Source: Candidatus Nanohaloarchaea archaeon (GTDB lineage Archaea; Nanohalarchaeota; Nanosalinia; Nanosalinales; Nanosalinaceae). Taken from it: 64,000 nucleotides of DNA. A model generated the notes under the pieces. That model searched no databases. It was not told the origin of the DNA and worked only from the letters and a program-made list of their open reading frames with translations. Shown piece after piece: positions 1 to 32,871 of the stretch (within the stretch, counting starts at the first letter, position 1; each line of letters starts with the position of its first letter). Both the position numbers and the translations under genes were made by a program. Where the stretch lies: NCBI GenBank assembly GCA_013343275.1, contig CP046106.1, forward strand, positions 704,001 to 768,000, in the 5' to 3' direction.

Positions 1-176
1 TAACTGCTGCCTGATTTCAATCAAGGTGCCGGATGTAAACCTCTAGTTCTAATGCAGGCTTTTCTAAGCTTTGAAACACAGAATAAGGCCCGCATTAATC
101 CTAAGGTTTTTATAGGGATTCAAACAATAACTATCATAGAAGATATAGTTTTTTCCAAAAGGAGGTGACAATTACC

Positions 177-374
177 ATGGCAGAACTACCACTAGCACCT
201 GTAAAGAGAATTATCAAACAGTCCGGAGCTTCCAGAGTTTCCGAAGATGCAGTAGAGGAACTAAGAGATGAACTGGAAGGATACGCTAGCGACCGAGCAC
301 GAGAAGCTAAAGAGTACGCTCAGCACGCTGGCAGAAAGACTGTACAGGCCGACGACGTAAAGGCTTCACAGTAA
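177..374 (+). CDS. Archaeal histone (HMf/HTk-type, single histone fold)
   Basis: MAELPLAPVKRIIK...RVSEDA...AQHAGRKTVQADDV. GGAGGTGA SD at 161-168 places the start at ATG 177. Confidence 0.95.
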   Translation: MAELPLAPVKRIIKQSGASRVSEDAVEELRDELEGYASDRAREAKEYAQHAGRKTVQADDVKASQ

Positions 375-435
375 GTCCTTTCTCGGCCAACGAGTTTTTA
401 CCTATTACCTTTCTTATTTTTCTTGAGTGAACTAG

Positions 436-1197
436 ATGAGGATTGAAAACAGCTTTATTCTCGCACCCGGAGTAGGAGAGAAGACTGAGAAGAAACTCTG
501 GAAAAAAGGAATAACACACTGGGACCATATAGAGAATACTAACGAAGTAAGCAGCCGGAAACAGGAAAAAATATCCAGCTTTGTACAGAAGGCCCGGAAA
601 AACCTTGAAGTAGAGAACTCAGTGTTCTTCCAGGAAAACCTCCCTAACAAAAGCCTCTGGAGACTTTACCGCAACTTCGAGGAAAAGGCCTGCTTCTTCG
701 ATATCGAGACCACCGGCCTCGACAAGAAAAAGAACAAGGTTACAACCGTCAGCTTCCACCGCGACGGAGATTCACGGACCTTGATACAGGGCCAGGACCT
801 GACAAAGGAAAGACTTGAGGAAGAGATGTTCGAATCAAAGATACTTGTATCGTTCAACGGAAAACGTTTCGACCAGCCGTTCCTCGAACAGAGCTTTGAC
901 ATGGATATCAACGTTCCGCATATCGATCTCATGTACCTATTCAAACGTATCGGCTACTCCGGCGGCCTGAAAAAGATCGAGAAACAGCTGGATGTTGACA
1001 GAGAGCTGGAGGATATCGATGGACGAGAAGCTGTCCGGCTCTGGAAGCAGTACGAGAATAACGGCAATCAGGAGGCACTGGATAAGCTGGTCAAGTACAA
1101 CCAGTACGATGCCAGAAACCTTGAGAGCCTTCTTGAGATAGTGCATGAGCGCTTAACGGGCGAAGTGTTTGAGCCTCACAGGCCTTCCGAACGATAG
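436..1197 (+). CDS. YprB/RNase_H_2-family DEDD 3'-5' exonuclease with N-terminal HhH-like segment
   Basis: PGVGEKTE, FFDIETTGL, VSFNGKRFDQPFL, HIDL, GGLKKIE and YNQYD motifs. Confidence 0.85.
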   Translation: MRIENSFILAPGVGEKTEKKLWKKGITHWDHIENTNEVSSRKQEKISSFVQKARKNLEVENSVFFQENLPNKSLWRLYRNFEEKACFFDIETTGLDKKKNKVTTVSFHRDGDSRTLIQGQDLTKERLEEEMFESKILVSFNGKRFDQPFLEQSFDMDINVPHIDLMYLFKRIGYSGGLKKIEKQLDVDRELEDIDGREAVRLWKQYENNGNQEALDKLVKYNQYDARNLESLLEIVHERLTGEVFEPHRPSER

Positions 1198-1199
1198 AC

Positions 1200-1221
1200 T
1201 TAAAAACGACTGATCCCAACT
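1200..1221 (+). promoter_or_regulatory. TATA-containing promoter resembling the tRNA-Ser promoter
   Basis: TTAAAAACGACTGATCCCAACT, compared with TTAAAGACTGACGATCCCAAACT at 61104-61126. Confidence 0.55.
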
Positions 1222-1233
1222 TTCAGATGAAAA

Positions 1234-1580
1234 TGGCCTTGGTACAAAATACACCGGCTCCGGAAAACATGTGGATGGATTCCGTGAGCTACTGCTATAC
1301 CCATCTGACCAGGGCCAAGGCTAAATTCTCAATTATTAACTTCCTGGCAGAGTAAAGCGGGATGAAGCCTTGGCTCCTACTGGAGTCAAGCGCCGACCGC
1401 GAATACTCAAGGCTTCTGGAAAATAGGATTCCAATTCTTCTACCTCTGTGGAACATAGGGTAGAGTTTTGGAATCGGAGGTATGCTGTGCTTGCAAGGTG
1501 CAGTGTACCTCACGGTTACCTATTCAACTTACTGACTGATCAAACACAAGTCGAACCGAAAAACACAACACGCCAGGTGA
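1234..1580 (+). ncRNA. Large structured RNA or leader of unknown family
   Basis: Stems 1234-1243/1308-1317, 1364-1372/1408-1416, 1427-1434/1468-1475, a fully paired hairpin 1477-1511 with G-U pairs, and 1343-1348/1572-1577. Confidence 0.65.
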
Positions 1581-1588
1581 CAACACCA

Positions 1589-1702
1589 ATGGACGCAAAC
1601 GCGCGGCATTTCGAAGTAGAACTTCAGGCCCAGCTTGAGGAAGAGGAAACTCAGGCACAGGTACATCCTGAAGCAAACGTCGTCGCAGTTCAAACTCTCT
1701 GA
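1589..1702 (+). CDS. 37-aa acidic micro-protein
   Basis: AGGTGA SD 8 nt before ATG, the same spacing as the histone, radA and cysD-like genes. MDANARHFEVELQAQLEEEETQAQVHPEANVVAVQTL. Confidence 0.6.
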   Translation: MDANARHFEVELQAQLEEEETQAQVHPEANVVAVQTL

Positions 1703-1719
1703 GAAAGAATAATAGAGAA

Positions 1720-1753
1720 CTTCCGCAGACCCTAGAAACCGCTCTAGCGGGAG
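1720..1753 (+). terminator. Hairpin between convergent genes
   Basis: CTAGA/TCTAG (1732-1736/1743-1747) enclosed by CTTCCGC/GCGGGAG. Confidence 0.35.
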
Positions 1754-2242
1754 CTATTCGTCTTGCTGATACGCTGCCGACTCGAATGCAGCCCAGCCAT
1801 TAGCCATAGAATCAAGTATCGAAGTAAACGAACGCGCCGGCTTCACAACCTTTCGACGGCCCTGCTTGCCCTCACGCTGGCCACGATACTCCAGGTATTC
1901 ATACTGTATAACACCAATCCTTCTCAACTTAGGCAGAATATTGTTCTTCAAGTTTGAAAGGCCTTTCTCATGACCCCATTCGCCGAAATTATTCAACTTC
2001 TCGGAGTCTATCTCTCCTTCATCCTTTAACTCGCGCAGAAATATCTTTGCGTACTTATTCCTCTTCGGAGACTGCTCCTGAGGGAAAAACAGGTCAACGA
2101 TCTTCTCCCAGTTCCATGCACGATCAGACTTCCTGTACTTCTGACTGTCGCGCGGAATAGCGATCGAGTTCTTAGTAACTATAGTAGTAGATTTACGGGC
2201 CTCTTCATCTACAAAAGGGTGCTCCTCATCATTCTCCGACAT
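1754..2242 (-). CDS. Uncharacterised protein, probable winged-helix DNA-binding fold
   Basis: NILPKLRRIGVIQY recognition-helix/wing pattern, a basic wing, and a C-terminal amphipathic helix. Confidence 0.55.
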   Translation of the reverse strand: MSENDEEHPFVDEEARKSTTIVTKNSIAIPRDSQKYRKSDRAWNWEKIVDLFFPQEQSPKRNKYAKIFLRELKDEGEIDSEKLNNFGEWGHEKGLSNLKNNILPKLRRIGVIQYEYLEYRGQREGKQGRRKVVKPARSFTSILDSMANGWAAFESAAYQQDE

Positions 2243-2252
2243 AACAGGTGTT

Positions 2253-2268
2253 TAACAAAGGAGGTATA
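2253..2268 (+). promoter_or_regulatory. 16-bp motif TAACAAAGGAGGTATA, putative operator
   Basis: Identical copy inverted at 9804-9819 and two 14/16 variants at 9652 and 9744. Confidence 0.6.
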
Positions 2269-2315
2269 TCAAAGAACCGGAAAGTGATAAAGCAGGACAG
2301 AACAACTAATTATAC

Positions 2316-2729
2316 ATGAACCAGCGTAAAGGAATCACCCCTGTAGTGGCAGTAACACTTCTCATCAGCATAACTGTAGCCGCTACCGGAACACTCTACT
2401 ACCAGATAGAGGGCGCTCAACAGGCCGCGAGAGGAGGAACCTCTGATATATTCGAGCAGTCAAGGCTAACTATCGAGGCCTGCAACAGCAACTCTGCCAG
2501 AAGCATTCTCTACGTCAGGAACAGCAACACCATGGCAATAAACACGAGCGAACTCAGCGTGTATATAAACAGCAGGCCTGTATCAGACTCCGAATATAGC
2601 TTCACTCCGACCGTTGTGGATCCTCAGAGAGATTTCAGGCTGAGGATAGACGGCAGAAATCTGAACAGATCGCAGGTGGTGGAGATTCAGGGCCGGAACA
2701 ACCAGTTCACCTACCGCTGTCTCAACTAG
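2316..2729 (+). CDS. Type IV pilin/archaellin-like protein with class III signal peptide
   Basis: RKG|ITPVVAVTLLISITVAA. Confidence 0.85.
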   Translation: MNQRKGITPVVAVTLLISITVAATGTLYYQIEGAQQAARGGTSDIFEQSRLTIEACNSNSARSILYVRNSNTMAINTSELSVYINSRPVSDSEYSFTPTVVDPQRDFRLRIDGRNLNRSQVVEIQGRNNQFTYRCLN

Positions 2730-2770
2730 GAAATTTATTTTTTGAAACTTGACCTTCCACTGATTTCACT

Positions 2771-3265
2771 ATGAGCTACGAAGAACTCTCCCGAGAAGAA
2801 CTAGTCGAGGCCCTGCAACAGGTAGAAAGAGAACTTGAAGAAGCACAGCAGGAAAGAGATGATAAAGAGGAACTGGCGAAGAAGGTCAAGGCCGACTTCG
2901 AGAACTACAAGAAAAGAGAACAGGAGAGAAAAGAACAGTGGCAGATCGAGGCCCAGCAGAAACTCGCGGAAGACCTGATCGAAGTACTTGATAACCTGGA
3001 GAGAGCTATTCTATCAGCAGATGAAGACTCTACCGTTGTACAGGGAGTGAAGATGGTTGCCGATCAGCTATACGAGACACTGGAGAAAAAAGGCCTTGAA
3101 AGAATAGATGCAGAGGGAGAGGAGTTCGATCCTGAACTGCACAAGGCCGTAGAGACCGAGGAAGGTACTCACAACAAAGTTCTGCGGCAGAAGAGAAAGG
3201 GCTATATGTTCGATGAAGAGGTACTTCGGGAGGCAGAGGTTGTAGTCGGTAAAGAAGAGGAGTAG
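2771..3265 (+). CDS. grpE: Nucleotide exchange factor GrpE
   Basis: ADFENYKKR, LDNLERA, FDPELHKAV; upstream of dnaK. Confidence 0.97.
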   Translation: MSYEELSREELVEALQQVERELEEAQQERDDKEELAKKVKADFENYKKREQERKEQWQIEAQQKLAEDLIEVLDNLERAILSADEDSTVVQGVKMVADQLYETLEKKGLERIDAEGEEFDPELHKAVETEEGTHNKVLRQKRKGYMFDEEVLREAEVVVGKEEE

Positions 3266-3345
3266 AGTTTTTGTGGAACTGATTTAAAAATTTTTATTCA
3301 TGTAATCAAAAAATAGTTGACAACCATTCCAGGTGAATAAATTCT

Positions 3346-5298
3346 ATGAGCGAGAACAACAAGATTATCGGCATCGATCTAGGTACGACAAGAAGCGCAA
3401 TGGCAGCAATCCAGGACGGAGAGCCAAAAATTCTGGAAAACAACGAAGGAGAGAGAATCACTCCCTCAATAGTGGCCTTTGACGATGAAGAGAGACTGGT
3501 CGGAAAACAGGCCAAGAACCAGATGGTGACGAACGAAGAAAATACTGTTAAATCCATCAAGCGCCACATGGGCGAAGATTATACTGTAGAACTTGAAGGA
3601 GAGGACTACACCCCGCAGGAAATTTCCTCAATGATCCTGCAGAAGCTGAAAACAGATGCTGAAGACAAGCTCGGCAACGATGTAGAGAAGGCCGTTATCA
3701 CTGTTCCCGCTCACTTCGACGACACCCAGAGACAGGCCACGAAGGATGCTGGAGAGATCGCAGGCCTTGAAGTTGAGAGAATTCTGAACGAGCCGACCGC
3801 TGCAGCTCTCGCGTACGGCCTTGACGATGAGAACGATCAGACTGTTCTTGTATACGATTTCGGAGGCGGAACATTCGACGTCACCGTGCTCGAGATGGGA
3901 GACGGAATCTACGAGGTCCAGTCCACTGAAGGAGACAACGATCTGGGAGGCGACGATTTCGACGAAGAGATAGTCGACTGGGTGCTGGAAAAGTTTGAGG
4001 ACGAAAACAGAATCGACCTCTCGGATAAGGACGAAGCGATGCAGAGAATCAGAGAAAAAGCCGAGGAAGCGAAAAAAGAGCTTTCCAGCCGGAAACAGGC
4101 CAAGATAAACATTCCGTTCATCCATCAGGAGGACGGCGAGACATACAATATTGACTACGAGCTGACACGCTCCAAGTTCGAGGATCTTATCGAGGATCTC
4201 GTTCAGAGGACGACAGAGCCTACCGAGACAGCCATAGAAGACGCAGGTATCGAAAAGTCAGACATTGACGAAGTTATCCTTGTCGGAGGAACCACGAGAG
4301 TTCCAGCCGTCAGAGAACATGTCCAGGCAATCACCGCCCAGGAACCAAACCAGGAGGTCAATCCTGCAGAGGCCGTAGCACAGGGCGCAGCAATTCAGGC
4401 CGGATCCATCACAGGAGAGATGGACGACATTCTTCTGCTCGATGTAGCACCTCTCAGCCTCGGAGTTGAGGTTAAAGGAGGCCTTACAGAGACACTAATT
4501 GAGAAAAACACGACAGTACCAGCCGAAGAGTCCAAGACCTTCACTACCGCGATGGACAACCAGACCGCAGTAACCATCAACGTAGTGCAGGGAGAACGCG
4601 AGATGGCAGAAGACAACAAATCTCTAGGAGAGTTCAATCTACAGGGCATCCCTCCTGCTCCAGCCGGACAGCCACAGATCGAAGTAACATTCGAGATCGA
4701 CGCAGACGGAATTCTACAGGTATCTGCAGAGGAACAGCAGAGTGGAGAAGAGGCCTCAATTTCAATTGACGATACCTCCCGGCTTGACGAAGATGAAATC
4801 GAGGAAATGAAGGAAGAGGCCGAGAAACACGAGGAACAAGACCGCAAGAAACGCGAGTTTATCGAGGCCAAGAACAAGGCCGATCAGATGATCTCCCAGG
4901 CAGAGACACAGATCGAGAACTTTGAAGACCAGGTCGACGAAGAAGTGATCGAAGAAATAGAAGAAGCAATTGAAGATGTCAGAGAGGCCCGTGAAGAAGC
5001 AGAAGAGATTGAAGATCTCGAAGAGGCCAAAGAAGAGATTGAAGAAGCGATTGAAGGCCTTGAGGAGGAGCTTCAGGAGATCGGCCAGGAAATGTACGAC
5101 GGCCAGCAAGGAGGTCCCGGCGGAATGGGAGGAGCAGGTTTCGATCCTTCCAACATGTCCGAGGAAGATCTTAAAGAAGCCGCTCAGAACATGGGCGGTG
5201 CCGGAGGACCTCAGCAAGGCGGAGATGATGTAGTCGATGCAGACTACGAAGAAGTAGAGACAGAAGAAGAATCAGGAGAAGAAGGGAAAGAGGAGTAA
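3346..5298 (+). CDS. dnaK: Chaperone DnaK (Hsp70)
   Basis: [33 protein letters not shown]. Confidence 0.99.
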
Positions 5299-5306
5299 AA
5301 ACTCCT

Positions 5307-5504
5307 TTATTCCCTCTCCGTTATATCCTGATATGCGAGGACTGTGAAGATTACGGCCAGCGCAAATGAACTGAAAGCGAGAGTTGAGTTATCTGAGTAA
5401 AACTGGAGAATGCCTCCAAGATACATCATGCTCAGGCATACGGCCCAGATGATCTTCCTTTTCGATCTATCGAGCTCGAAATCAAGGTAATCAGTTAAAG
5501 ACAT
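5307..5504 (-). CDS. Small two-TM membrane protein
   Basis: Fills the dnaK-dnaJ gap; two hydrophobic stretches. Confidence 0.55.
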
Positions 5505-5536
5505 ACACAGAAAGTACAGGAGGACGAATAAAAACT

Positions 5537-6616
5537 ATGAGCAAGGAATACTACGAACTTCTAGGAGTAAGCGAAGACGCAAGTCAGGAGGAAATCAAGA
5601 AGGCCTACAGGAAGAAGGCCAAAAAATACCATCCGGACAGCAACTCTGATAGTGCTGACGAGGAGAAGTTCAAGAAGATTAACAAGGCCTACGATGTTCT
5701 CAGCGATGAGGAAAAAAGAAAGAAGTACGACAGATTTGGCAAGCAAGGTGTTGAAGGTAACGCCCGGGCAGGTCAGCAGAGGGCCTCGCAGAACTTCCAG
5801 GATATCTTCGAGCATCTGTTCGGAGGCGGAGGTCGTGGCGGTCGCCGCGGCAGAAACTCCGGGGAAAACCTGAGAATCCAGACAGCTGTAACCCTGGAAG
5901 AGGCCTATAAAGGAGTTGAGAAAAGTTTTGAGGTTGCCAGGAATAAAGAGTGTCCTGAATGTAATGGTTCTGGAGCTGAAAATGGTAATACATCTACATG
6001 TACAGAGTGTGATGGCCAGGGTAGAGTTCGACAGGTCCAGAGAACGCCTTTCGGCCGTACACAGACAGTTACAGAGTGTCCTACGTGTAATGGAACAGGC
6101 GAAGTTCCTGAAGAGAAATGCAGCGAATGCAGTGGCGAAGGAGTAACTGAGCAGGAGGAGCAGATAACAGTTGATATTCCTGCAGGAGTGAAGGACGGCC
6201 AGAGACTGAAGGTTGCCGGCAAAGGTAATGAGGCCAGAGGAAGGCCTGGCGACCTGATAATCCGTGTCAGCGTGGAGCCTCACGACTCACTTGAGCGCAG
6301 AGATAACGACTTGTTTACTACTGCAAAGGTCGGTATCGGAGACGTAGCTCTTGGAACAGAGATCACGGTACCAACTCCGGACTCGGAGATACAGGTAGAG
6401 ATCCCTGAAGGCACTCAGCCAGGGCAGGTACTCAGAGTCAGCGGGAAAGGAATGCCTTCTAGACGGGGCCGTGGCTACGGAGATCTGTTCATCAAGGTGG
6501 ATGTTGAGATACCGGAGGACTTGACCGAGGAGCAGAGAGAAACGCTGGAAGAGCTCCGACAGGAAGACGAGGAATCAAAGACTTTCTTCGAGACAGTCAA
6601 GGACTTCATCGGGTAG
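5537..6616 (+). CDS. dnaJ: Chaperone DnaJ
   Basis: J-domain HPD motif and four CxxCxGxG repeats. Confidence 0.98.
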
Positions 6617-6670
6617 AAGCAATCCAGCTCAGTTAATAATTTTTTAAACTATTCTATTAATTTTTCTTTT

Positions 6671-7063
6671 ATGGAGATTGTAAGCCTTTCAGTAGACGAA
6701 GAGACACTGGAGAAAATCGAAGAAATACAGGAAGAAGGAAATTTTAACGGAAGAAGCGAACTGGTCAGAAAGGCCATCGAAAGGCTTCACCAAGAGACAA
6801 TGGAGAACCAGAAACTGGAGGGCGAACTCAATGCAGTGATCGTAGCCCGGCACCCATATCAGAAAGAGCAGGAAGTAGCCAAGATATCACACGAATTCGA
6901 TGAAGTAGTAACCACCCAGCTGCACAGCAAGCTCAGCGGAGGCCGATGCCTCAAAGTATTCCACACCAACGGCACAGCCAGCAAAGTAATAGAGTTCTAC
7001 AACGAACTTGAAGGAAGCAAACACACAGACTCAGTCAACATGCTGCCACAAGACCAAAAATGA
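6671..7063 (+). CDS. NikR-like regulator (RHH plus C-terminal metal-binding domain)
   Basis: IVSLSVD...RSELVRKAI RHH; ISHEF...QLH...RCL. Confidence 0.8.
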   Translation: MEIVSLSVDEETLEKIEEIQEEGNFNGRSELVRKAIERLHQETMENQKLEGELNAVIVARHPYQKEQEVAKISHEFDEVVTTQLHSKLSGGRCLKVFHTNGTASKVIEFYNELEGSKHTDSVNMLPQDQK

Positions 7064-7262
7064 AATAACTTGGTAGCTGTCAAGTGAAACAAGAGATTCT
7101 TCCCAGCAAATTAGAGGATAATAGTTTTAGTATTCCTTCCGAGGGACAAAGGCGGTATTTGGTGTTTAATAGGTTGTTTTTGTTTTCTAAAGGTCTAATC
7201 TGTTAAAAAGCAAATTTTTTGGGAAAAAGATTTTTACTTTTGTAGTATCAAGTCCTTCCTGA

Positions 7263-8057
7263 ATGGATTTCCTGAAACAAGAATATAGGGAGAAAGAGAC
7301 ATGGATTCCCGATTCTCGTTTATTAGCTGCAGCTGTAGCTGTTGTTGTGCTTCAAGCAGTGTTCTATAAATTTGTTATCACATCTTTCCTGAGTTTAGTT
7401 CCTTTTAACTTTGTTACTGACATATTAATCGGCCTAACTGGTTTTTTAATAGAAATTTTAGTTATTAAGTATGTTTTAGATAGTTATCAGAGTATTAAGG
7501 AGGGTTTACGGTACGGCATTTCTGTAGCTTCGATTTGGTTATTACTTAACATATCTTGGGTTTTCCACGACTTAATAATAGGTGTATCATGGGCAAATAA
7601 TATCGAATCTTTACTAGCTGGCCCAGTAGTTAGTTTACTTGAAAGCACTTCCATATTTTTAGTTTATAAGAGATTTCCAACAGGTATAGATATAGAGCGA
7701 TTTAAGGAGTATACTATTTATTCTGTAATTGCAGTTATGCTATTTTTTATAACAGGTATAATCTTTAACGGGCTTTCTGACCTAAATTATGTGTTCGCTG
7801 ATGCCGGATTCTTACTGGTTCCGACTATATTGGAGATCTACTGTCTAAGAGAAATATTGCCAGAAATTTCGGAGCTAGACAGCTTAAGATTCACTTCCTA
7901 TGCTGTTCTAGCAGTATCTGCCATAATCTTAATTACTTCTATAATAGAATTTCTACTTCAGCTAAGAGTAAATATCCCTGGAGATATAAGTTTAGCCTTT
8001 ACTCTTACAGTGGTAATGCTCATTATATGGCATCAGGAGCTGCGAACTGAAAAATAA
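7263..8057 (+). CDS. Multi-pass membrane protein, AT-rich
   Basis: About 8 hydrophobic segments with internal two-fold similarity; visibly low GC. Confidence 0.7.
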   Translation: MDFLKQEYREKETWIPDSRLLAAAVAVVVLQAVFYKFVITSFLSLVPFNFVTDILIGLTGFLIEILVIKYVLDSYQSIKEGLRYGISVASIWLLLNISWVFHDLIIGVSWANNIESLLAGPVVSLLESTSIFLVYKRFPTGIDIERFKEYTIYSVIAVMLFFITGIIFNGLSDLNYVFADAGFLLVPTILEIYCLREILPEISELDSLRFTSYAVLAVSAIILITSIIEFLLQLRVNIPGDISLAFTLTVVMLIIWHQELRTEK

Positions 8058-8175
8058 ATAATGATATAGGTTTACGTACGCACACATGGTTTTTCGACTA
8101 TTATGTAGAAGAGCAATTATCTCCTAGAAAAATGTAAATGTTATCGCCACGAAACAGATACATGGTGTATCAGAG

Positions 8176-8568
8176 ATGAAATTAGCGCACACAATGCTTA
8201 GAGTAGGTAACCCAGAAGAGGTAATCGAGTTCTACAAAGAGGCCTTCGACATGGAACTGAAGAGAAAGTCAGAACAAGACTCCTTCACACTTTACTTCCT
8301 CGGACACCCAGGCCAGACAGCAGAACTCGAACTCACATACAACCACGGCCAGGACGACAAATACGGGAAAGGTGAAGGATTCGGCCACATCGCAATCCAC
8401 ACACCAGAGGACATGACACTGCAGGAAGCATACGACAACGCAGTAGAGGCCGGCGGAGAAGACTACAGGCCTCCAGAAGAATGTCCCGGCGACTACGCAT
8501 TCGTCAAAGATCCTGAAGGCTACGAAGTAGAGATACTTGCAAGGCCTGCAGCCACACCGGAAGAATAA
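8176..8568 (+). CDS. gloA: Lactoylglutathione lyase (glyoxalase I)
   Basis: HTMLRV, LELTYN, GFGHIAI, FVKDPEGYEVE. Confidence 0.9.
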   Translation: MKLAHTMLRVGNPEEVIEFYKEAFDMELKRKSEQDSFTLYFLGHPGQTAELELTYNHGQDDKYGKGEGFGHIAIHTPEDMTLQEAYDNAVEAGGEDYRPPEECPGDYAFVKDPEGYEVEILARPAATPEE

Positions 8569-8616
8569 CTCCTCCAACGCTTTCTTCTTTAATTCTCCAG
8601 AACCAACTATACTCAC

Positions 8617-9132
8617 ATGAAGGAGATCGAGGCCAAAATCCTGGAAGTAGATCCTGCAGAAATCCGTCGAAAAATGCAGGAAATGAACGCTGAGAAAAAA
8701 TTCGAGGGCAAAGTACAGTCAGAGTTCTACGACTACGAAGACGGCCGTATCGAGGAAAACGGCATACTTCGGCTCCGAAGGCTAGGGTCGGAGACCATTC
8801 TCACCCGGAAAACAGATGAAGAAAATCAGGACGGAGCAAAAGTCATGGAAGAGATCGAGTTCGAGGTCGGCGATATGGATGAAGCCCGTGCACTACTCAC
8901 ATCACTCGGCCTTGAACAGATACACTCCAGTGAGAAAACCAGAGCCAAATGGCATCACGGCCGAATAGAATACGTCATCGACTGGTACCCGGACATACCA
9001 GCACTACTGGAAATCGAGGCCCCGACACAGCAGGAACTCACAGAAGCCATCGAAGACCTGGGCTACAACCCTGACGAGGCCAAAGACTGGGACAGCCACG
9101 ACCTCTACCAGCACTACGACGCAGAAAGATAA
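8617..9132 (+). CDS. CYTH (class IV adenylate cyclase-like) protein
   Basis: EIEAK, LRLR, EEIE, EKTR, LEIE. Confidence 0.85.
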   Translation: MKEIEAKILEVDPAEIRRKMQEMNAEKKFEGKVQSEFYDYEDGRIEENGILRLRRLGSETILTRKTDEENQDGAKVMEEIEFEVGDMDEARALLTSLGLEQIHSSEKTRAKWHHGRIEYVIDWYPDIPALLEIEAPTQQELTEAIEDLGYNPDEAKDWDSHDLYQHYDAER

Positions 9133-9202
9133 CATACATTTTCACTTCCCCTCTATATTTCTCCCTCTCAGACCTCGATAATACTCACAACAAAGGCCCG
9201 AT

Positions 9203-9256
9203 TGTTCAAAATTATCGAACACCATACCACACAGCCGTGTTAATTTATAGCGAACA
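9203..9256. promoter_or_regulatory. Two TGTTC-N9-GAACA-type palindromic boxes
   Basis: 9203-9221 perfect; 9238-9256 TGTTA-N9-GAACA. Confidence 0.55.
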
Positions 9257-9296
9257 TTCAATATTTTTTAATAGGTTTTGAGACAACTTATGAGTT

Positions 9297-9596
9297 ATGA
9301 CACAACCCTACGAGAGTTCAGACAGCATGAACACTCTCACAGAACAGGCCTATGAGCATATAGAAGAGGCGTTAGACGACCAGATAGACTACTGGGAAGA
9401 TCAGCAGGCAGCTGTTGCACTAGGCCAGTTCCTGGAAGGAGATCACGAAGGCGCCGAAGAACTCGAAAGAATAGAAGGTGAGATTTTCATGGGAGAGAGC
9501 CTGAAAACCATGTTAGAGGCCTCTGTAGGAGAACAAATTAATACCGAAAACGCCGTCCAGATGGTACAAGGATACCTTCAGGAGAACACTTACTGA
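9297..9596 (+). CDS. Hypothetical acidic protein
   Basis: 99-aa ORF with acidic halophile-type composition. Confidence 0.65.
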   Translation: MTQPYESSDSMNTLTEQAYEHIEEALDDQIDYWEDQQAAVALGQFLEGDHEGAEELERIEGEIFMGESLKTMLEASVGEQINTENAVQMVQGYLQENTY

Positions 9597-9650
9597 GTGT
9601 GCAAAAAGACCAAACACCCATTGATTTCAGGCCCATTCCAGAAAACCCTC

Positions 9651-9820
9651 ATAATAAAGAAGGTATATCGCAACTTAGGCCGCATGTGTTTTCTGGCATC
9701 TTCTTGGTGCTTTAGCTTGGGGTCGCGCCATAGATCAGCCATATAATAAAGAAGGTATATTTTCACCTTGCTGAATGACCAGGTCCAATTCACTGGTCTC
9801 TATTATACCTCCTTTGTTAT
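9651..9820. repeat. Cluster of three TAAYAAAGRAGGTATA repeats (two direct, one inverted)
   Basis: ATAATAAAGAAGGTATAT at 9651-9668 and 9743-9760; TATACCTCCTTTGTTA at 9804-9819. Confidence 0.8.
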
Positions 9821-9903
9821 GAGCATTTCTAGAATATTGCCAGAAAATCAGGAAAGTTCGGCCGGTCTTCATACTCATTGAGAAGAAAATATGGAGAAAA
9901 AGT

Positions 9904-10281
9904 TTATTCTCTGAGGCCTTCAAGTCGTTCACTCCAGTACTCGAAGGAGTTTTCCGCTGCCTGACGGCCTAGATCCCTGTTGCTCCACCTCTCCTTCAGG
10001 TATCCGCTTAGTGCAGCACCCACAGCTACAGCTGCGAACTCTTCTGGGCCTCCTCCAGACATGTAGGAGAATGTGCCTCCGCCTGCTGCTGCACCGGCTG
10101 TCGCCCCATTCAGATCATCGCGATCAGGAGATAGGTAGTCGCTGATAGTGTAGTCTCCTGTCTCAGCAGCGATCAAATCCGCAAATTCGCTATTGCCCAA
10201 GGCTCTAGCTCTTTCCTCCATTATTGGAGCAATTTCCTCGTTAATTTCTATGTACGCTTCTTCTGATTCCATTTTCACCAC
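9904..10281 (-). CDS. Hypothetical protein with Gly/Ala-rich (glycine-zipper-like) segment
   Basis: GATAGAAAGGG...AAVAVGAALSG; GAGGTG SD nearby. Confidence 0.65.
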   Translation of the reverse strand: MVKMESEEAYIEINEEIAPIMEERARALGNSEFADLIAAETGDYTISDYLSPDRDDLNGATAGAAAGGGTFSYMSGGGPEEFAAVAVGAALSGYLKERWSNRDLGRQAAENSFEYWSERLEGLRE

Positions 10282-10333
10282 CTCAAATAATAGTTGTTAC
10301 CCAATAGATAAAAATTTACTGGTTATAACCCTA

Positions 10334-10543
10334 TTAGGCCTTTTCTGTGTGTTCATTTAGCAATTGAAGCACAATATCTCTGTTATTCTCTGTATAAAGA
10401 ATATTCGCAGTGGCGTCTTCTGATTCAGTAACCGATATTCCTAGGCCTGTATTATCGAATACCTCCTTTAGCCTGGAGTAGAGGCCTGTTTCTCCGTGTA
10501 GAATAAACTTGCTTCCATCGTCCTGTATTTTGTAAACTCTCAT
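10334..10543 (-). CDS. Hypothetical protein
   Basis: ORF track 10334-10600; ATG 10543 preferred because the upstream part carries a palindromic box. Confidence 0.5.
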   Translation of the reverse strand: MRVYKIQDDGSKFILHGETGLYSRLKEVFDNTGLGISVTESEDATANILYTENNRDIVLQLLNEHTEKA

Positions 10544-10580
10544 AACGTATTTTTCGAGGCCATCAGTCAAAAAGAATGGG

Positions 10581-10700
10581 TGTTCGCATAGTTTGAACAC
10601 TCAACAACCATGAATTAACTCTTCAGTACAAACAACAGCTTTTAAAAGACATTGAATGTTCGTCTTTCTTTAACAGTGTATTGTTCACAGAAATCGAACA
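10581..10700. promoter_or_regulatory. Three TGTTC-N9-GAACA-type palindromic boxes
   Basis: 10581-10599 and 10682-10700 perfect; 10657-10675 TGTTC-N9-TAACA. Confidence 0.6.
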
Positions 10701-10778
10701 CCCTGAAACGAGATGTGAGTAGAACAGGGCCTCTGAAGGAGGAAAAATTCTTCAGTACCTAGCCGAATACTGTAAGGT

Positions 10779-11423
10779 ATGAGCAACGGCCTGGTAGTTG
10801 AGGAGAATCCTGATGCAGGTCATGGCCTTCTGGTAGTGCCTGGTATCAGTAGTGGGCCTTTCGGCAGTCCTTTCGATGAAGTAGTGGATGAGATGAGTGA
10901 ATACTGCAGTGTTGTGAGGGTTGACGCATGGGATGATGCAAGAGACCTGGAGGATATGACACTGAGAGATCTACATGAGATAGTTGAAGGCGCCGTGGAG
11001 AGATTGAGAGATCTGGGCTGCGAAGGGATACATGTGCTGGGCAAGTCCTTCGGAGGCCAGCTTGCATTAACCTATCCAGAGAATGTGAGTTTTGATTCAA
11101 TGGTTCTGTGGGCTCCAGCAGTAGGCCTTGGTGAGAACAATGTGGAAAAGTGGAGATCTACTGCTCTTAGGCAGGCCTCTACAGCTACAGATATCTCCAT
11201 CGACATATCAGAGCTTGAAGGCCTTGACGTAGAGACTCTTCTGATACATGGAGAGAACGATCAGGTAGTTGAAGTAGAGAACTCAAGAAGGATAGCCGAT
11301 CAGTTGCCGGATGGCGATGTGAGAGTTATCGAAGATACCGGTCACTCCTTTGAAGGTCACGAAGGAGAGGTCGCAGAAATTACGGTAGATTTTCTCAGTC
11401 AAGCAACTTCATCAGATCGTTAA
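10779..11423 (+). CDS. Alpha/beta hydrolase
   Basis: GKSFGG nucleophile elbow, HGENDQVV, TGHSF. Confidence 0.9.
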   Translation: MSNGLVVEENPDAGHGLLVVPGISSGPFGSPFDEVVDEMSEYCSVVRVDAWDDARDLEDMTLRDLHEIVEGAVERLRDLGCEGIHVLGKSFGGQLALTYPENVSFDSMVLWAPAVGLGENNVEKWRSTALRQASTATDISIDISELEGLDVETLLIHGENDQVVEVENSRRIADQLPDGDVRVIEDTGHSFEGHEGEVAEITVDFLSQATSSDR

Positions 11424-11664
11424 GTGCGTGGGCTACATCCTGGCCTCGTGATGTGAGTTCGATATACTTTTTCCTGCCTTTTTTCCGGGTCTCAATCAGG
11501 CCTATTTCCTCAAGCTTCTGTATTATCCTTACAGCATGGGAGTAAGTGCAGTCAATGTTGGAGGACAAGGCAGATGCATAGTTTTCTGCGGAGGGATCAG
11601 CCAGCCTCACCATCATCTTGGCGGGCTTGGTGTGCAGGAAGAACTCCTGTTCGCTTTCATCCAT
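11395..11664 (-). CDS. MarR-like winged-helix regulator
   Basis: TYSHAVRIIQKLEEIGLIE...GRKKYIELTSRG. Confidence 0.85.
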   Translation of the reverse strand: MDESEQEFFLHTKPAKMMVRLADPSAENYASALSSNIDCTYSHAVRIIQKLEEIGLIETRKKGRKKYIELTSRGQDVAHALNDLMKLLD

Positions 11665-11773
11665 TATATCAACTGTACATGTTTATTGTGGTTCTAAGTT
11701 AATATTCTCTTTGGTTGTGATAGAGTCCATCTTTGACTTTATAATGGTTTTGTGCACTATTCTAAACGTGACA

Positions 11774-11971
11774 ATGGAATTCTCTACAGCTAAAATGAAG
11801 GAAATGATCAAAGGCCAAGGAGACAAAAGAGTTTCCGAGGAAAGCGCCGAAAGACTGGGAGAGATCCTGGAAACATTCGCCGGCGACGTAGCAGAGGAAG
11901 CAATCGCAGTCGCTAAGGAAGACGACCGCAAGACAGTAAGGAAAGAAGACGTCAAGAAGGCTCTTCGATAA
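11774..11971 (+). CDS. Archaeal histone-fold protein (divergent)
   Basis: MEFSTAKMKEMIK...RVSEESA...AKEDDRKTVRKEDV. Confidence 0.9.
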   Translation: MEFSTAKMKEMIKGQGDKRVSEESAERLGEILETFAGDVAEEAIAVAKEDDRKTVRKEDVKKALR

Positions 11972-12049
11972 CTCCTGCTACCTATTATTTTTCTATTTTT
12001 GAACTCTCACACGAAAGAGGATTTAAGATTTCCATTCACTTCTTACAGT

Positions 12050-13048
12050 ATGGACACCGAGGAAATTATAGAGAAAATAGTCGAAGAGACAGAACTCGAT
12101 GAAGACGAAGTAAAGGAAAAAGTAGAAGCTAAAATGGACGAGTTCGAAGGCCTTGTATCGGAAGAGGGCGCAGTCCACCTGGTTGCCAAGGAACACGGAG
12201 TTAACGTAGGCCAGGAAATGAGCGAAGACCTCAAAATAGAAAATATTGTACCAGACATGCGTAAAGTCAACTTCAAGGCCCGCGTAGTAAATATATCCGA
12301 CATGAATACTTTCGAGAGAGATGATGAAGAGGAAGATGGCCGTGTCCAGAACGTTGTCCTCGGTGACGACACAGGAACTATCAGAATGACCCTCTGGGAC
12401 GAACAGACAGATATAGCGGACAAGATCGACGAAGGCGACCCTATCGAGATAACCGGAGCCTACACCATGGAAGACGACCGCGGAAACGCAGAGATCCGGC
12501 TAGGCGACTCCGCAAAGGTCGCAATGGCTGACGAAGAAGACGTACCGGAAGTAGAGACCGGCGGATCAGATACAGAAGAGGCCTCGATCAGAGAAGTTAA
12601 CTCGGAGAACTCCTCTTACAGGATCAGCGGTATGCTGATGGCTGTATACACCAACAATCCTTTCTACCGTGTCGACCCTGAAACCGGCGACACAGTAAGA
12701 GAGAACGACGACGGAGAATACGTAACAGACGATGGAGATGTTGTAGAGGAACCAGGCCACCGACTGGCACTTTCAGGAGTACTGGACGACGGCACAGGCA
12801 ACATCAGAGTAGTATTCTTCGGAGAGCAGGCCCGTGATGTGCTCGGTATCGATGAAGAGACAGAGAAAGAAGGAGACCTGCAGGCCGTAGAGGATGCCGG
12901 TGAAGAAGCAGTAGGAACAGAGCTGGAAGTTGAAGGTAGGACCCGATACAACGACTACTTCGGCCGCATCGAGCTTCTTGCAAACAGTGTCGAAGAAGTA
13001 GACACAGAAGAACAGCTGGAAGATCTCCTGGAAGTAATGGAGGTCTAA
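12050..13048 (+). CDS. rpa: Replication protein A (OB-fold ssDNA-binding protein)
   Basis: GLVSEEGA N-terminal domain, GDDTGTIRMTLW, LDDGTGNIRVVFF; next to radA. Confidence 0.88.
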   Translation: MDTEEIIEKIVEETELDEDEVKEKVEAKMDEFEGLVSEEGAVHLVAKEHGVNVGQEMSEDLKIENIVPDMRKVNFKARVVNISDMNTFERDDEEEDGRVQNVVLGDDTGTIRMTLWDEQTDIADKIDEGDPIEITGAYTMEDDRGNAEIRLGDSAKVAMADEEDVPEVETGGSDTEEASIREVNSENSSYRISGMLMAVYTNNPFYRVDPETGDTVRENDDGEYVTDDGDVVEEPGHRLALSGVLDDGTGNIRVVFFGEQARDVLGIDEETEKEGDLQAVEDAGEEAVGTELEVEGRTRYNDYFGRIELLANSVEEVDTEEQLEDLLEVMEV

Positions 13049-13122
13049 AAACTTATACTATGACAAGATTTCAAACAGTTAGAACGCATTCAACGAATTC
13101 AGAAACAAAGGTGAGTTACTAA

Positions 13123-14073
13123 ATGGGAAATAACACAGATCTTGAAGACCTGGACGGCGTAGGAGGAAAAACAGCAGAGAGACTGAGAGAGGAAGGCCTT
13201 ACCAACCTAATGGAGATAGCAAACATGAAGGCCGGAGAACTATCCGGAAAGGTCGACGGCATCGGAGAGTCAGCAGCAGAGAGCATAGTCAACTCTGCAA
13301 TGGACAAGGCTGATGTAGGAGGTTTCGAGACAGGAACCGACCGGTACGAGAAAAGGCAGGAGATGGAAAAGATTTCAACCAACTCCGAGAGCTTCAACGA
13401 ACTGCTTGACGGCGGAATCGAGACACAGTCCTTGACAGAGCTTTACGGAGAGTTCGGAGCAGGAAAAACTCAGATCGCACACCACCTCGCAGTAAACGTC
13501 CAGCGACCGGAAGAAGACGGCGGCCTCGGAAAAGGAGCAATCTACATCGACACAGAAGATACTTTCATACCCGAGAGAATCGAGCAGATGGCAGAGGCGC
13601 AGGGAATGGACTCTGAAGAAGTACTAGACAATATCCATGTAGCAAGGGCCCTGAACTCCGACCATCAGATGCTACTGGCAGAAGAAGCCAAACAGATATG
13701 TGAAGACGAGGAGATAGGCCTTATCGTCGTTGACTCACTGATGGCTCACTTCCGTTCAGAGTACGTAGGCAGAGGAGAGCTGGCTAAAAGACAGCAGAAA
13801 CTCAACAAGCACATGTCAACACTGCTGAAAGCAGCCAACACCTACAACGTGGCAGTCATCCTGACCAACCAGGTCATGGACAACCCAGATCAGATGTTTG
13901 GAGACCCTACAAAGGCTATCGGAGGAAACATCGTCGCACACAACTGCGCTACGATCATCTACCTCCGCAAAGGTAAGAAAGACACAAGGGTTGCAAGACT
14001 GGAAGACAGCCCTTACCTGCCGGAAGGAGAGGCCGTCTACTCAATCGAAGACGAAGGAATCATCGACGGCTAA
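13123..14073 (+). CDS. radA: Recombinase RadA
   Basis: GEFGAGKTQ, YIDTEDTF, VVDSL, RQQKLN; no intein. Confidence 0.97.
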   Translation: MGNNTDLEDLDGVGGKTAERLREEGLTNLMEIANMKAGELSGKVDGIGESAAESIVNSAMDKADVGGFETGTDRYEKRQEMEKISTNSESFNELLDGGIETQSLTELYGEFGAGKTQIAHHLAVNVQRPEEDGGLGKGAIYIDTEDTFIPERIEQMAEAQGMDSEEVLDNIHVARALNSDHQMLLAEEAKQICEDEEIGLIVVDSLMAHFRSEYVGRGELAKRQQKLNKHMSTLLKAANTYNVAVILTNQVMDNPDQMFGDPTKAIGGNIVAHNCATIIYLRKGKKDTRVARLEDSPYLPEGEAVYSIEDEGIIDG

Positions 14074-14198
14074 ACCATCTTCTCAAAATTTTTTATTTTA
14101 TCTAACTAATCAAAGAAAATTAGCAAATATGTTCGATCGATTGGAGAAAATCATTAATTTTCCGAAATCAATTTAAATTTTCTAAGCGAAATCAAGGT

Positions 14199-15683
14199 AT
14201 GGACGAAGAAAGAGTACTCTCCAGTCTTCGTAGAGACAACCCTTGGTGGTCTAAACAGAGTATAGATTGGGATGAGAATTATTACAAGAGGAGCCATTAC
14301 TATATGTTAAGGAGGCAGATAGAGGAAGAGGAGATTACAGGTTTACTAGGGCCAAGAAGAGTAGGTAAGACCACCATACTAAAGCAGATTGCAGAATACC
14401 TAGTTGAGGAGAAAGACGTTCCCACCGAGAGAATATTTTTTGTTCAGATGGATAATCCCTATCTAAATAGTTCTCTAGAAGATCCTCTAAAAGACATACT
14501 GGAAGTATATCAAGACTATATTTTAGAAGACAGCTTCGAGAATATCGAAGAGCCAGTCTATATATTTTTAGACGAAATTCAGGTTTTGGATAATTGGGCC
14601 GAAAAGCTGAAATATTGGTATGACCTCGATTATGAACTAGTATTTACTATTACTGGGTCCTCTAGCGCCAAAATAACCGCCGGCTCAGAGTCGCTATTAG
14701 GACGTATTATTGATAGAAACATGCTTCCTCTAAAGTTTTCAGAAACGATTAAAATGAAGAGAGAGTGTGGTGAGATGGACTTAGAGATGGAACATCAAAA
14801 AAATAAACATATAATGAAGTCTTCATTTGAGAAGGCTATTAAGGAAGATGATCCTAAGGGGCTGTATCGTGCATTCACCAAAAATACTTCTTTCCTAAGA
14901 AACGATAAATCCAAGATTAAACCCGAACTTGAGAGATACCTTAACAGAGGAGGTTATCCTCGAATTATACAGAAGGAAATTGAAGAGGGCCTAGATTTAG
15001 ATTACGCGTCTAGAAAACTAGAGAATGACGCTGAGAAAGCGATACAGAAAGATGCTTCTGAAATTTATGATGTCTCACCAGACAAACTCATGAAAATAGC
15101 TATTTTTATAGCTGACAACACTGCTCAGAAGCTAGTAAAGAGTAGCTTATCTGATTTTGTTGGAGTTTCCGGGTCCACGGCAGCAAAATATGTTGACCAC
15201 TTGGAGGAAGCCTACATCATTCACAGATCAAAACATTACTCAGGCAGTGCAGCGGCGTCAGAAAGAAAGCAGCAGAAATCCTATATTTGGGATCCGGGTT
15301 TTAGAAACGCCATTGTTGGTTCTCTAGGAGGCAACTACAACATGCCTCCCGAAGAAAAAGGTCTTGTTGTAGAATCTGTCTGCGCAGACCATATGAAGAG
15401 ATTATCCTATAGCATTGAAGGTTCCAAAGAAAACGTGTACTTCTGGGACTATCAGCAAGGAGAAGTAGACATAGTTCTTAATATATCAGATAAAACAGTT
15501 CCCATTGAGGTTAAATATCGTGATGAAGTGAAGAAATCTGACTTGAAAGGGCTAAATCGCTTTATCTACGATAACGGAATAGATTATGGAATAGTCATCA
15601 CAAAAGATAAAACAGATATTATGGAGTTAAGAGAAGGCAAAGCTGTACTTATCCCGCTTTGGAGCCTTCTAATGATGATATAA
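14199..15683 (+). CDS. AAA_14 ATPase with DUF4143/PD-(D/E)xK-like C-terminus
   Basis: NPWW, GPRRVGKTT, FLDEIQ, TGSSS, GGYP, EVDIV...PIEVK. Confidence 0.9.
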   Translation: MDEERVLSSLRRDNPWWSKQSIDWDENYYKRSHYYMLRRQIEEEEITGLLGPRRVGKTTILKQIAEYLVEEKDVPTERIFFVQMDNPYLNSSLEDPLKDILEVYQDYILEDSFENIEEPVYIFLDEIQVLDNWAEKLKYWYDLDYELVFTITGSSSAKITAGSESLLGRIIDRNMLPLKFSETIKMKRECGEMDLEMEHQKNKHIMKSSFEKAIKEDDPKGLYRAFTKNTSFLRNDKSKIKPELERYLNRGGYPRIIQKEIEEGLDLDYASRKLENDAEKAIQKDASEIYDVSPDKLMKIAIFIADNTAQKLVKSSLSDFVGVSGSTAAKYVDHLEEAYIIHRSKHYSGSAAASERKQQKSYIWDPGFRNAIVGSLGGNYNMPPEEKGLVVESVCADHMKRLSYSIEGSKENVYFWDYQQGEVDIVLNISDKTVPIEVKYRDEVKKSDLKGLNRFIYDNGIDYGIVITKDKTDIMELREGKAVLIPLWSLLMMI

Positions 15684-15698
15684 TCACAGGACGCCATC

Positions 15699-15944
15699 TT
15701 GGCTTACGATCACGAAGGTCCTGTATTCTTCAACGAAGACGAACGCAGAGAGCTGGATAGAGACTCCAATCTACTGATAGGAGACTACGGCCAGGTCAAA
15801 GACGAAGACACCGAAAACTGGCTGAGACATCGACTCGACCACCTGAACGCATACATCACAGCAAACAGAGATGTCGTCAAGATAATCAACTTCGAAGACG
15901 AAGAACTATCAGCCAGAGTTGAAGGAGAAGAATACAGAATATAA
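15699..15944 (+). CDS. Hypothetical protein
   Basis: Acidic 81-aa ORF with TTG start. Confidence 0.55.
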   Translation: MAYDHEGPVFFNEDERRELDRDSNLLIGDYGQVKDEDTENWLRHRLDHLNAYITANRDVVKIINFEDEELSARVEGEEYRI

Positions 15945-15978
15945 GAAAATACAGGCGATAGGCCTTTGAAGGCCCTGC

Positions 15979-16239
15979 TTAAATCATGTCATCTTCAGAG
16001 ACAATCACAAAGTCTCCGATAGACTTGACAGCGGAGAAAGGCACTAGATTACGGCCTTTCCTGTCTTCCTGAAGGCTCTGCTCCGAGATGTTCTCTGTAG
16101 TATTGGTTATCAAGATGTTCATCAGCTCTCCTGTATCAGATACAAAGGAGAGGTCATCTACTTCGCCAAATTTTTTACCATGTTCTTCTGAAACAATTGT
16201 CTTGCCTTTGATCTCGGTACCACGCGGATTGTTTGCCAT
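15979..16239 (-). CDS. PRC-barrel protein (CdpB-like)
   Basis: GKTIVSEEHGKKFGEVDDL...VPFSAVKSIGDFVIV. Confidence 0.88.
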   Translation of the reverse strand: MANNPRGTEIKGKTIVSEEHGKKFGEVDDLSFVSDTGELMNILITNTTENISEQSLQEDRKGRNLVPFSAVKSIGDFVIVSEDDMI

Positions 16240-16288
16240 TTTCAGTTCGCCTAAGTATTTATGAGCATCTCATAATTAAAAACTTTGT

Positions 16289-16828
16289 ATGCCGAGAGTA
16301 TTCTCCGCCGTAGAAATAGAAGACGAAGAAGTACTTGACAGACTGGAGGAAATACGCAACGAAGTAGACCAAGGATTCAAACCCGTACCACGGGAGAAAA
16401 TGCATATCACTCTCGAGTTCTTCAAAGACATAGACAGCCAGGAAATCCAGAGGATCAAGAAATCAATGCAAGATACCGGTATAGAGCCTTTTACGGCAGA
16501 GATCAGAGGCCTGGGCGCCTTCCCCTCCCGAGACTACATACGGGTTATCTGGGCCGGCGTAGAATCCGGAGAACTGCATGAACTGAAAGAAGATATTTCA
16601 GGCCACGAAGTCAGCAACTCAAACGAAGAAGAGTTCAGGCCTCATATAACACTACACAGGGTAGAAAACCTGGACAGCAGCGGAAAGAAAGAGATACAGC
16701 AGAAACTGGACAAGTACTCCGGCCAGAAGATTGCGGAGATAGAGGTAGACAAAGTAAAGCTGTTTGAAAGCGTTCTGGATGACGACGGCTCCCGATACAG
16801 AGAGCTGGAAGTGAAGGAGCTTGGATGA
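16289..16828 (+). CDS. thpR: RNA 2',3'-cyclic phosphodiesterase (2H family)
   Basis: Two HITL motifs, GAFP, RVIWAG. Confidence 0.9.
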   Translation: MPRVFSAVEIEDEEVLDRLEEIRNEVDQGFKPVPREKMHITLEFFKDIDSQEIQRIKKSMQDTGIEPFTAEIRGLGAFPSRDYIRVIWAGVESGELHELKEDISGHEVSNSNEEEFRPHITLHRVENLDSSGKKEIQQKLDKYSGQKIAEIEVDKVKLFESVLDDDGSRYRELEVKELG

Positions 16829-17163
16829 AAAAGGAAGGCCTGTACAGACTGGCTTTCCTGCTTGCTCTCGCTGGACTAACCCTTATGTACGGCGCAACAT
16901 TCCTTGAGCCTCAGAAAGTCCATGTCTCAGAACTAAAGCCTGCAATGGTTGGAGAAAAGGTCAAGATAAGCGGGACCGTACAGGAACCTTCCGGTAGCAA
17001 ACATTTCTTCTTCACACTGAAGGAAGGTAACTCCACTGTCAGAGCGGTAAAGTTCGACACCTCTCCAGGATATACCTCTGGCGCAGAGGTAACTGTAACC
17101 GGAGAGATAACGATGTACAAGGGAGAGCTGGAGATAATAGTCCAGAAGATCAGGCCTAGATAA
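16825..17163 (+). CDS. Membrane-anchored OB-fold protein
   Basis: N-terminal TM; VKISGTV...FFTL...VTGEITMYKGELEI. Confidence 0.75.
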   Translation: MKKEGLYRLAFLLALAGLTLMYGATFLEPQKVHVSELKPAMVGEKVKISGTVQEPSGSKHFFFTLKEGNSTVRAVKFDTSPGYTSGAEVTVTGEITMYKGELEIIVQKIRPR

Positions 17164-17206
17164 CAAACTGTCGAATGTTTAAATCTGGAGGCCTCAACAT
17201 TTCTAC

Positions 17207-17587
17207 ATGCTAGGAATTCTCCTGCTACTAATGATAGCAGTGCCTTTCACAGACCTGTACATACTTCTGCAGATAGCTGGAATGATCGGCTTCTGGCAGA
17301 CACTTGCCATAGTAATAGCAACCGGTGTTATCGGGGCAGCGATAGTCCGTAGAGAAGGCCGTCACGTACTGAAAAAACTGCAGCGATCCGTCACTGCTGG
17401 AGAGGTAAGCAGGAACGTAGCAGAGGGAGCCCTCCTCGTAATCGCAGGCTTGCTACTGATAACACCCGGAATAATAACAGATGTAACCGGTTTCCTGTTA
17501 ACCTTCAGGCCTCTAAGAGAACGACTTGTAGCCCGATGGATATCAGGTAACTCCGGCAATATCGAGGTTGAAGTCTTCCGCTTCTAG
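17207..17587 (+). CDS. fxsA: FxsA-family membrane protein
   Basis: IGFWQTL, GLLLITPGIITDVTG. Confidence 0.88.
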   Translation: MLGILLLLMIAVPFTDLYILLQIAGMIGFWQTLAIVIATGVIGAAIVRREGRHVLKKLQRSVTAGEVSRNVAEGALLVIAGLLLITPGIITDVTGFLLTFRPLRERLVARWISGNSGNIEVEVFRF

Positions 17588-18255: not shown

Positions 18256-18288
18256 GCAGAACACCGGAGAAAGCAGGTCTGGAACCAG

Positions 18289-32823: not shown

Positions 32824-32871
32824 CTATCTCGCCCCCCAGAAAACAGTATTTAATCTCATTTGATCTTCGAA

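Follow-up and report, generated by a model that had tools for sequence, protein, structure and literature searches.

We describe a compact multi-box locus, hereafter the core, in a 64-kb window (i.e. the whole stretch of 64,000 nucleotides that was analysed) of a nanohaloarchaeal genome, G000. The locus is real, occurs phylum-wide and is undescribed as far as we searched. From sequence comparisons, we read it, with a probability of about 40 %, as a centromere-like site at which a nucleoprotein complex would organise the origin region. In the literature within reach (subscription papers and preprint supplements lay beyond it), we found no description of the core element or of the family of the winged-helix protein P0001 discussed below, and none of the function of the related AF_0843 proteins.

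The initial annotation of this DNA had pointed to a 16-mer upstream of the P0001 gene that recurred, exactly and inverted, next to two 14/16 variants. We found these copies at 2253-2268 (+) and 9804-9819 (-), with the variants at 9652 and 9744; the first copy indeed lies 11 to 26 nt from the start of the gene (ATG of 1754-2242, minus strand). Its view that chance would hardly produce such a recurrence was borne out as well, 0.41 matches being expected per window at up to three mismatches and four being reached in none of 100 shuffles. A genome-wide scan with the degenerate 16-mer returned exactly four copies in the 915,886-bp single-contig genome, all of them inside the window, i.e. one at the start of the P0001 gene and three in one 168-bp core. 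Among relatives, the three central bases vary freely and some copies are perfect palindromes; the real unit behind the 16-mer is thus, as the aligned sequences indicate, a 15-bp pseudo-palindrome with a free 3-nt centre, AYAWAS-N3-STWTRT (the A dyad). The strict 15-bp pattern alone is not rare (three matches against one to four expected), and what stands above chance is the clustering and the conserved geometry of the copies, not the pattern itself.

The copy at the P0001 gene (2255-2269) overlaps the inferred TATA box. An A dyad was present at the gene start in all 39 distinct genes of relatives, 34 of which were scored (at most one mismatch, within 60 nt upstream) and five read by eye. In the scored genes, it mostly lies at about -27, on a TATA-like sequence of the gene strand, and in the remaining five it overlaps the ATG. 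Its orientation is flipped in four of the 39 genes, and a divergent pilin gene is the neighbour in only ten. As the consensus was derived from the same sequences, it is the position and the flips that carry the operator argument, and not the match. Considering the dyad at all 39 gene starts, these flips and the joint change of dyad and protein in the sister families (see below), P0001 very probably binds the A dyad and represses its own gene through it. The proposal that P0001 is the cognate, self-repressing binder of the array at 9.65-9.82 kb is thus well supported by comparison; the initiator option was weakened (see below).

P0001 is a 162-aa protein. Its predicted structure (pLDDT 78, from a 67-row alignment) comprises a winged helix and a long C-terminal helix and, together with fold searches, supports the wHTH-like character suggested beforehand. 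The fold matches are ties (TFE-alpha, Z 9.4; TFIIE-alpha, 9.1-9.2; FUR, 8.9-9.0; LmrR, 8.8), the best one, TFE-alpha/TFIIE-alpha, reaching Z 9.4 with an rmsd of 3.8 over 101 aligned residues at 9-13 % identity. Pfam and PDB sequence searches gave no name for the family. In the family of the window (f1), one full copy per genome was found in 33 of 36 genomes by single-sequence search and in 44 of 48 by profile search, database matches sharing 65-93 % identity. The homologue search matched 206 genome stretches, the remote homologues being labelled Micrarchaeota, Naiadarchaeales, Altiarchaeales, Aenigmatarchaeota and, in one case, Woesearchaeota; no homologue was found on plasmids (one query) or viral contigs. 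The tree of the family, quick and with long branches, served only for picking subfamilies. Among the homologues listed, a single one carried the PF27297 (AF_0843) label, and a local Pfam scan of P0001 returned no PF27297 match. The P0001 profile was linked at 99.0 %, with an Atlas match of 0.90, to a set containing a PF27297 protein; the link is indirect, and P0001 may be a remote relative of the AF_0843-like archaeal family at the profile level, via the homologue set. In Ca. Nanohalococcus occultus, an RPKM of 507 is given for a gene between grpE and an RNase H-like gene (PMC10266531), its gene order making it a putative orthologue of P0001. Downstream of the P0001 gene, a long stretch (1200-1750 of the window) had no Rfam match. 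Additionally, an f1-type P0001 gene was noticed on a 2-kb contig (G051:C114) of an f3 genome that otherwise has an f3-type core, possibly a binning error.

The core contains three A boxes: box 1 (9654-9668), 92 bp before box 2; box 2 (9746-9760), which is preceded by a TATA-like run; and box 3 (9803-9817), inverted, 57 bp after box 2. This arrangement is rigid. Of the 37 distinct cores, 35 have box 1 at -92 and two have it at -91; wherever the sequence reaches box 3 (35 cores), this box is at +55 to +57. A matrix spanning box 1 to box 2 had one core match in G000 (score 124, the next best being -33.6) and recovered the core in 18 of 20 fetched regions, both misses being from G014; fetched regions of G017 and G013 likewise yielded no core. 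Between the boxes, a conserved element with the consensus GTTT..ATAT..TGGCGC (9686-9710, +) keeps a similar distance to box 2 in every family, and the TATA-like run abuts box 2 in all of them. An 11-bp periodicity between boxes 1 and 2 was weak (p 0.02-0.10). The geometry is kept where the P0001 gene has moved 6-28 kb away. In G001, a species of the same genus as G000, the core and an adjacent 69-aa gene are inverted and the flanking gene is a different one; as flanking genes are variable and these two species have the core in opposite orientations, the core serves no fixed neighbour. We also considered the core as a structured non-coding RNA and rejected it, since no conserved pairing was found (19 cores, aligned gap-free over 108 columns from box 1 to box 2, gave not one consensus base pair on either strand), nor any Rfam match in positions 1-20000 of the window.

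Loci of the sister families f2-f5 were located by following an 89-aa winged-helix gene, which in the window lies at 11395-11664 (-). A short P0001 homologue (121-136 aa) comes further along, within 3 kb, in 13 of the 19 sister loci, several of which end at contig ends. Direct profile comparison between the f1 and sister proteins was weak (1.7 %), and comparison via an intermediate profile gave 97.4 % and 99.0 %; homology of the two proteins is deduced from these intermediate matches and from gene order. The sister cores share with those of f1 the GTTT..ATAT..TGGCGC element and the TATA-like run before box 2. Their dyad is a different one, GTTGAC-N6-GTCAAC, of which 16 cores have two to four copies, with box 3 at +43-45, +53-54 or +64, i.e. 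in steps of about one helical turn. The same dyad stands upstream of 11 of the 12 scored sister homologue genes (it is missing in L232), at -48/-49 in all seven displaced genes having it and shared with the core in four adjacent genes. The sister-family box (at most one mismatch) was found in 15 of the 19 sister genomes, once in each except twice in G056, and in none of 49 f1 genomes; against the core and operator of G000, the best matches of the sister dyad carry 5 and 6 mismatches. The reverse comparison makes the cross-test imperfect, the f1 dyad occurring upstream of three AT-rich sister genes at one or two mismatches. The predicted recognition helix of the sister homologue also differs from that of P0001. 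It is this co-variation of dyad and protein that mainly supports cognate binding by P0001. In four sister genomes, the homologue gene comes immediately after the core. This suggests that the two started out side by side and that the operator later moved along with the gene. In three f3 genomes (L221, L222 and L223), a perfect dyad, GTCCGA(A/G)CGCTCGGAC, was observed upstream of the core.

A second palindrome, B (consensus TGAGTGTTCR-N7-YGAACACTCA), flanks the core on the left at 9594-9620. Exact B matches number 40, in 25 of 50 genomes; none is more than 1.7 kb away from an A box, and 39 are no further than 500 bp. The left B site is at about -141, -150, -163 or -174, again in steps of about one helical turn. 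Further B sites form pairs about 100 bp apart that bracket TATA-like runs ahead of variable, mostly core-facing genes. In the window, these are a left promoter-like unit (9199-9337, +), in which a TATA-like run lies amid B sites at 9199, 9234 (weak) and 9311, ahead of a core-facing 99-aa acidic ORF (9297-9596, +), and a right one (10577-10704, -), with B at 10577, 10653 (weak) and 10678, ahead of a core-facing 69-aa ORF (10334-10543, -). The 99-aa ORF and a 125-aa acidic ORF (9904-10281, -) are variable flanking genes. The 69-aa ORF, of no known family and with sub-threshold Atlas matches only, is conserved in 33 of 49 f1 genomes, mostly beside the core. We rejected it as a self-regulated B binder, given that no B site precedes it in G017 or in the eight regions in which it has left the vicinity of the core. 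In 18 of the 19 sister loci (f1 loci L238 and L239 left out), B sites lie within 250 nt of the 3' end of the 89-aa gene and are followed by a 350-500-bp interval. From this linkage only, the 89-aa winged-helix protein is perhaps the B binder, which we hold at even odds. A divergent histone gene (11774-11971, +), 45 % identical to the histone at 177-374, is usually kept between the RPA gene and the 89-aa gene; G000 has four histone-fold genes in all (177-374 and 11774-11971 in the window, and G000:C1:98301 and 182246), the divergent one being linked to RPA and the core locus. A recurring protein type of about 200 aa (LGxWL...WP) was also seen beside the core, on either side, in several genera (L031, L032, L047, L054 and L183).

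The canonical origin of this genome is a separate locus. ORB-like boxes occur only at 32946 (-), 33071 (+) and 33305 (-) of the window, upstream of cdc6-PolD, where they surround a duplex that is among the weakest in the genome, and none lies in the core; the origin (32830-33330) is 22 kb from it. The distance between core and cdc6 is 13-62 kb in 15 f1 genomes and 13-24 kb in the four sister genomes with both on one contig. GC and AT skews of the genome were uninformative. The core resembles an Orc1/Cdc6 origin in having repeated boxes near DNA-replication genes and differs from it by its motif and by the separate ORB origin at 32.9-33.3 kb. It was rejected as an Orc1/Cdc6 origin because it has no ORB box, lies 22 kb from the ORB origin and is harder to melt: at 60 bp, duplex weakness places the origin in the lowest 0.001 % of the genome and the core at 1.6 %.

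G000 encodes SMC, ScpA-like and ScpB-like proteins and two ParA/MinD ATPases, this last pair about 57 kb from the P0001 gene. No ATPase gene or ParA-ParB operon is linked to the P0001 gene or the core, and ParB (PF02195) was not found in this genome, which is 96 % complete. The SMC has only 847 aa, short for an SMC, and the ScpA- and ScpB-like genes follow it (G000:C1:593102-597974). The partition function evoked in the initial annotation is plausible, though neither ParB nor a linked ATPase gene was found. We favour a centromere-like reading because the core is single, origin-proximal and independent of its neighbours, in a genome with SMC, ScpA/B and ParA/MinD in which ParB was not found. 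P0001 dimers would bind the A dyads of the core and of their own gene, and self-repression through the same dyad would hold P0001 low, matched to its few sites. With lower confidence, B would be bound by the neighbouring 89-aa protein, and P0001 and the B binder might wrap or loop the core into a complex. Such a complex would be a point-centromere-like mark of the origin region and would recruit SMC-ScpAB, or tether the new origins so that they segregate, in cells in which no ParB was found. Several points speak against this reading. A conserved block of DNA-metabolism genes (cdc6, PolD, RadA and RPA) may be all that keeps the core close to the origin, and the B sites of the flanking genes, set around TATA boxes, resemble ordinary operators. 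The missing linked ParA-ParB operon, the regions of G014, G017 and G013 that yielded no core, the Micrarchaeota without array or exact B site and the weak 11-bp periodicity count against it as well. In its most extended form, which we hold as no better than a doubtful, speculative picture, the Nanohaloarchaeota would possess a point centromere defined by its sequence, i.e. a near-origin locus of 170-450 bp on which two winged-helix proteins, and possibly the neighbouring histone variant, form a phased complex loading SMC-ScpAB without ParB, protein and DNA code co-evolving between families.

Comparison with known systems rests on the accessible parts of the sources cited. There, AspA of the Sulfolobus plasmid pNOB8 (AspA-ParB-ParA) is a winged-helix dimer whose binding site, a palindrome and putative centromere, lies upstream of the gene encoding it (PMC5120986, PMC13722703). 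As compared with these partial accounts, P0001 is likewise a winged helix with a palindrome, presumably bound by it, upstream of its own gene. Unlike the AspA system, no aspA-parB-parA cassette surrounds P0001, ParB was not found, and the target is a core of its own, rigid and multi-box, accompanied by a second palindrome. The listed fold matches of P0001, where many winged-helix folds tie, did not include AspA. SegAB (Sulfolobus) and HpaAB (Haloferax pHV3) are described in the same partial accounts as site-specific centromere binders with few sites, of ribbon-helix-helix type and in an operon with ParA (PMC5120986, PMC13722703); P0001 is similarly a candidate archaeal site-specific binder with few sites, but is modelled as a winged helix and has no linked ParA or ATPase gene. 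Bacterial ParB-parS loads SMC-ScpAB, according to the available text of a further source (PMC11840125). As in that system, palindromes are clustered near the origin of a genome encoding SMC-ScpAB; in contrast to it, no ParB CTPase was found and the sites form one compact locus with fixed spacing. In its workings, the core appears closest to AspA, SegB or HpaB with their sites, or to parS, yet it departs from each of them in the cassette or the fold that defines the system. SMC loading and chromosome segregation in archaea with SMC-ScpAB but without ParB are presented as an open question in the accessible text of two sources (PMC11840125, PMC13722703), and our searches found no work on either process in DPANN archaea. 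The nanohaloarchaeal lineage has cultured members, as stated in the available part of another (PMC10266531); with one locus, two motifs and two candidate binders named, binding and role are directly testable. Should the role prove regulatory, an element that is rigid throughout the phylum and changes its motif together with the recognition helix of its binder would still be an unusually clean protein-DNA pair, for an archaeal family that lacks annotation and in a group that gave no TFE match.

This last point bears on the best-surviving alternative, a possible if rather unlikely one, in which the core is a transcriptional hub: it would promote short or antisense RNAs against inward-pointing, B-controlled genes, with P0001 and the B binder as a two-regulator switch, and P0001 could be a site-specific, TFE-like open-complex factor. 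The TATA-like run abutting box 2 in all families, the operator layout of the flanking promoter units and the gene directly after the core in four sister loci fit this idea; yet no conserved gene or RNA follows the core, the 19 aligned cores gave no consensus pairing on either strand, and the geometry stays intact with the gene 6-28 kb away. As for a TFE-like factor, TFE-alpha (PF02002, E up to 1e-7) was found in none of 69 genomes of the order, and the same search found it in five of five Micrarchaeota and four archaeal controls. The extended winged helix of TFE-alpha/TFIIE-alpha is also the best-covering fold match of P0001 (Z 9.4, rmsd 3.8, 101 residues), but FUR (8.9-9.0) and LmrR (8.8) tie with it. 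Unlike TFE-alpha, P0001 has no cysteine and hence no zinc ribbon, and its gene has no PF02002 or TIGR00373 match; its family coexists with true TFE in Micrarchaeota, where all five genomes have both, and appears sequence-specific.

An accessory origin or replication-control locus is unlikely. P0001 would then be a winged-helix initiator (WhiP- or Rep-like), or the core would time initiation at the nearby origin, as datA/DARS do in E. coli. Initiators often autoregulate through their origin boxes, and two direct boxes and an inverted one in fixed geometry, with RPA and RadA as neighbours, agree with such a locus. So does duplex weakness at 30 bp, where the minimum of the core falls within the lowest 0.3 % of the genome. 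The canonical three-box ORB origin upstream of cdc6, 22 kb away, is however a far weaker duplex at 60 bp (0.001 % vs 1.6 %), and this weakened the initiator option of the initial annotation; moreover, the core has no ORB-like box, and P0001 homologues were found neither on plasmids (one query) nor on viral contigs.

We regard as very improbable a recombination site with accessory DNA (cer/psi- or pdif-like) in which B is the crossover site and P0001 an architectural factor. It would account for the variable flanking genes and for inversions such as the one that distinguishes the cores of G000 and G001. A crossover site would also fit B, whose dyad has a 7-bp centre and keeps a phased distance to a rigid, accessory-like stretch of about 170 bp. 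Xer/dif sites have 11-bp arms and a 6-bp centre; unlike these or cer-like sites, B has an odd-length centre, whose sequence differs between copies in one genome, and B sites are placed as operators in promoters. No XerA-like recombinase was found in G000; the sole tyrosine recombinase there, an integrase of 478 aa, is encoded at 123-125 kb, where GC is low. Finally, the idea of a general promoter element, or of a site serving the divergent pilin gene, can be practically dismissed: the dyad overlaps TATA-like sequence at about -27 in most genes, but the scan gave only four genome copies, several relatives have it flipped or moved onto the ATG, and the pilin gene is the neighbour in only 10 of 39.

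As no array was seen in five Micrarchaeota genomes and no exact B site in 151, the core locus is documented, from the sequences compared, for Nanohaloarchaeota only. In Micrarchaeota, a related-looking motif lies at -29/-30 of 37 of 68 homologue genes, overlapping the TATA box. In six loci of this group (L098, L111, L114, L115, L123 and L136), another dyad, ACCGT..ACGGT, immediately precedes the TATA box, and the conserved gene upstream encodes a 104-aa protein whose end is an acidic tail bearing a GFGSIFG-like motif.
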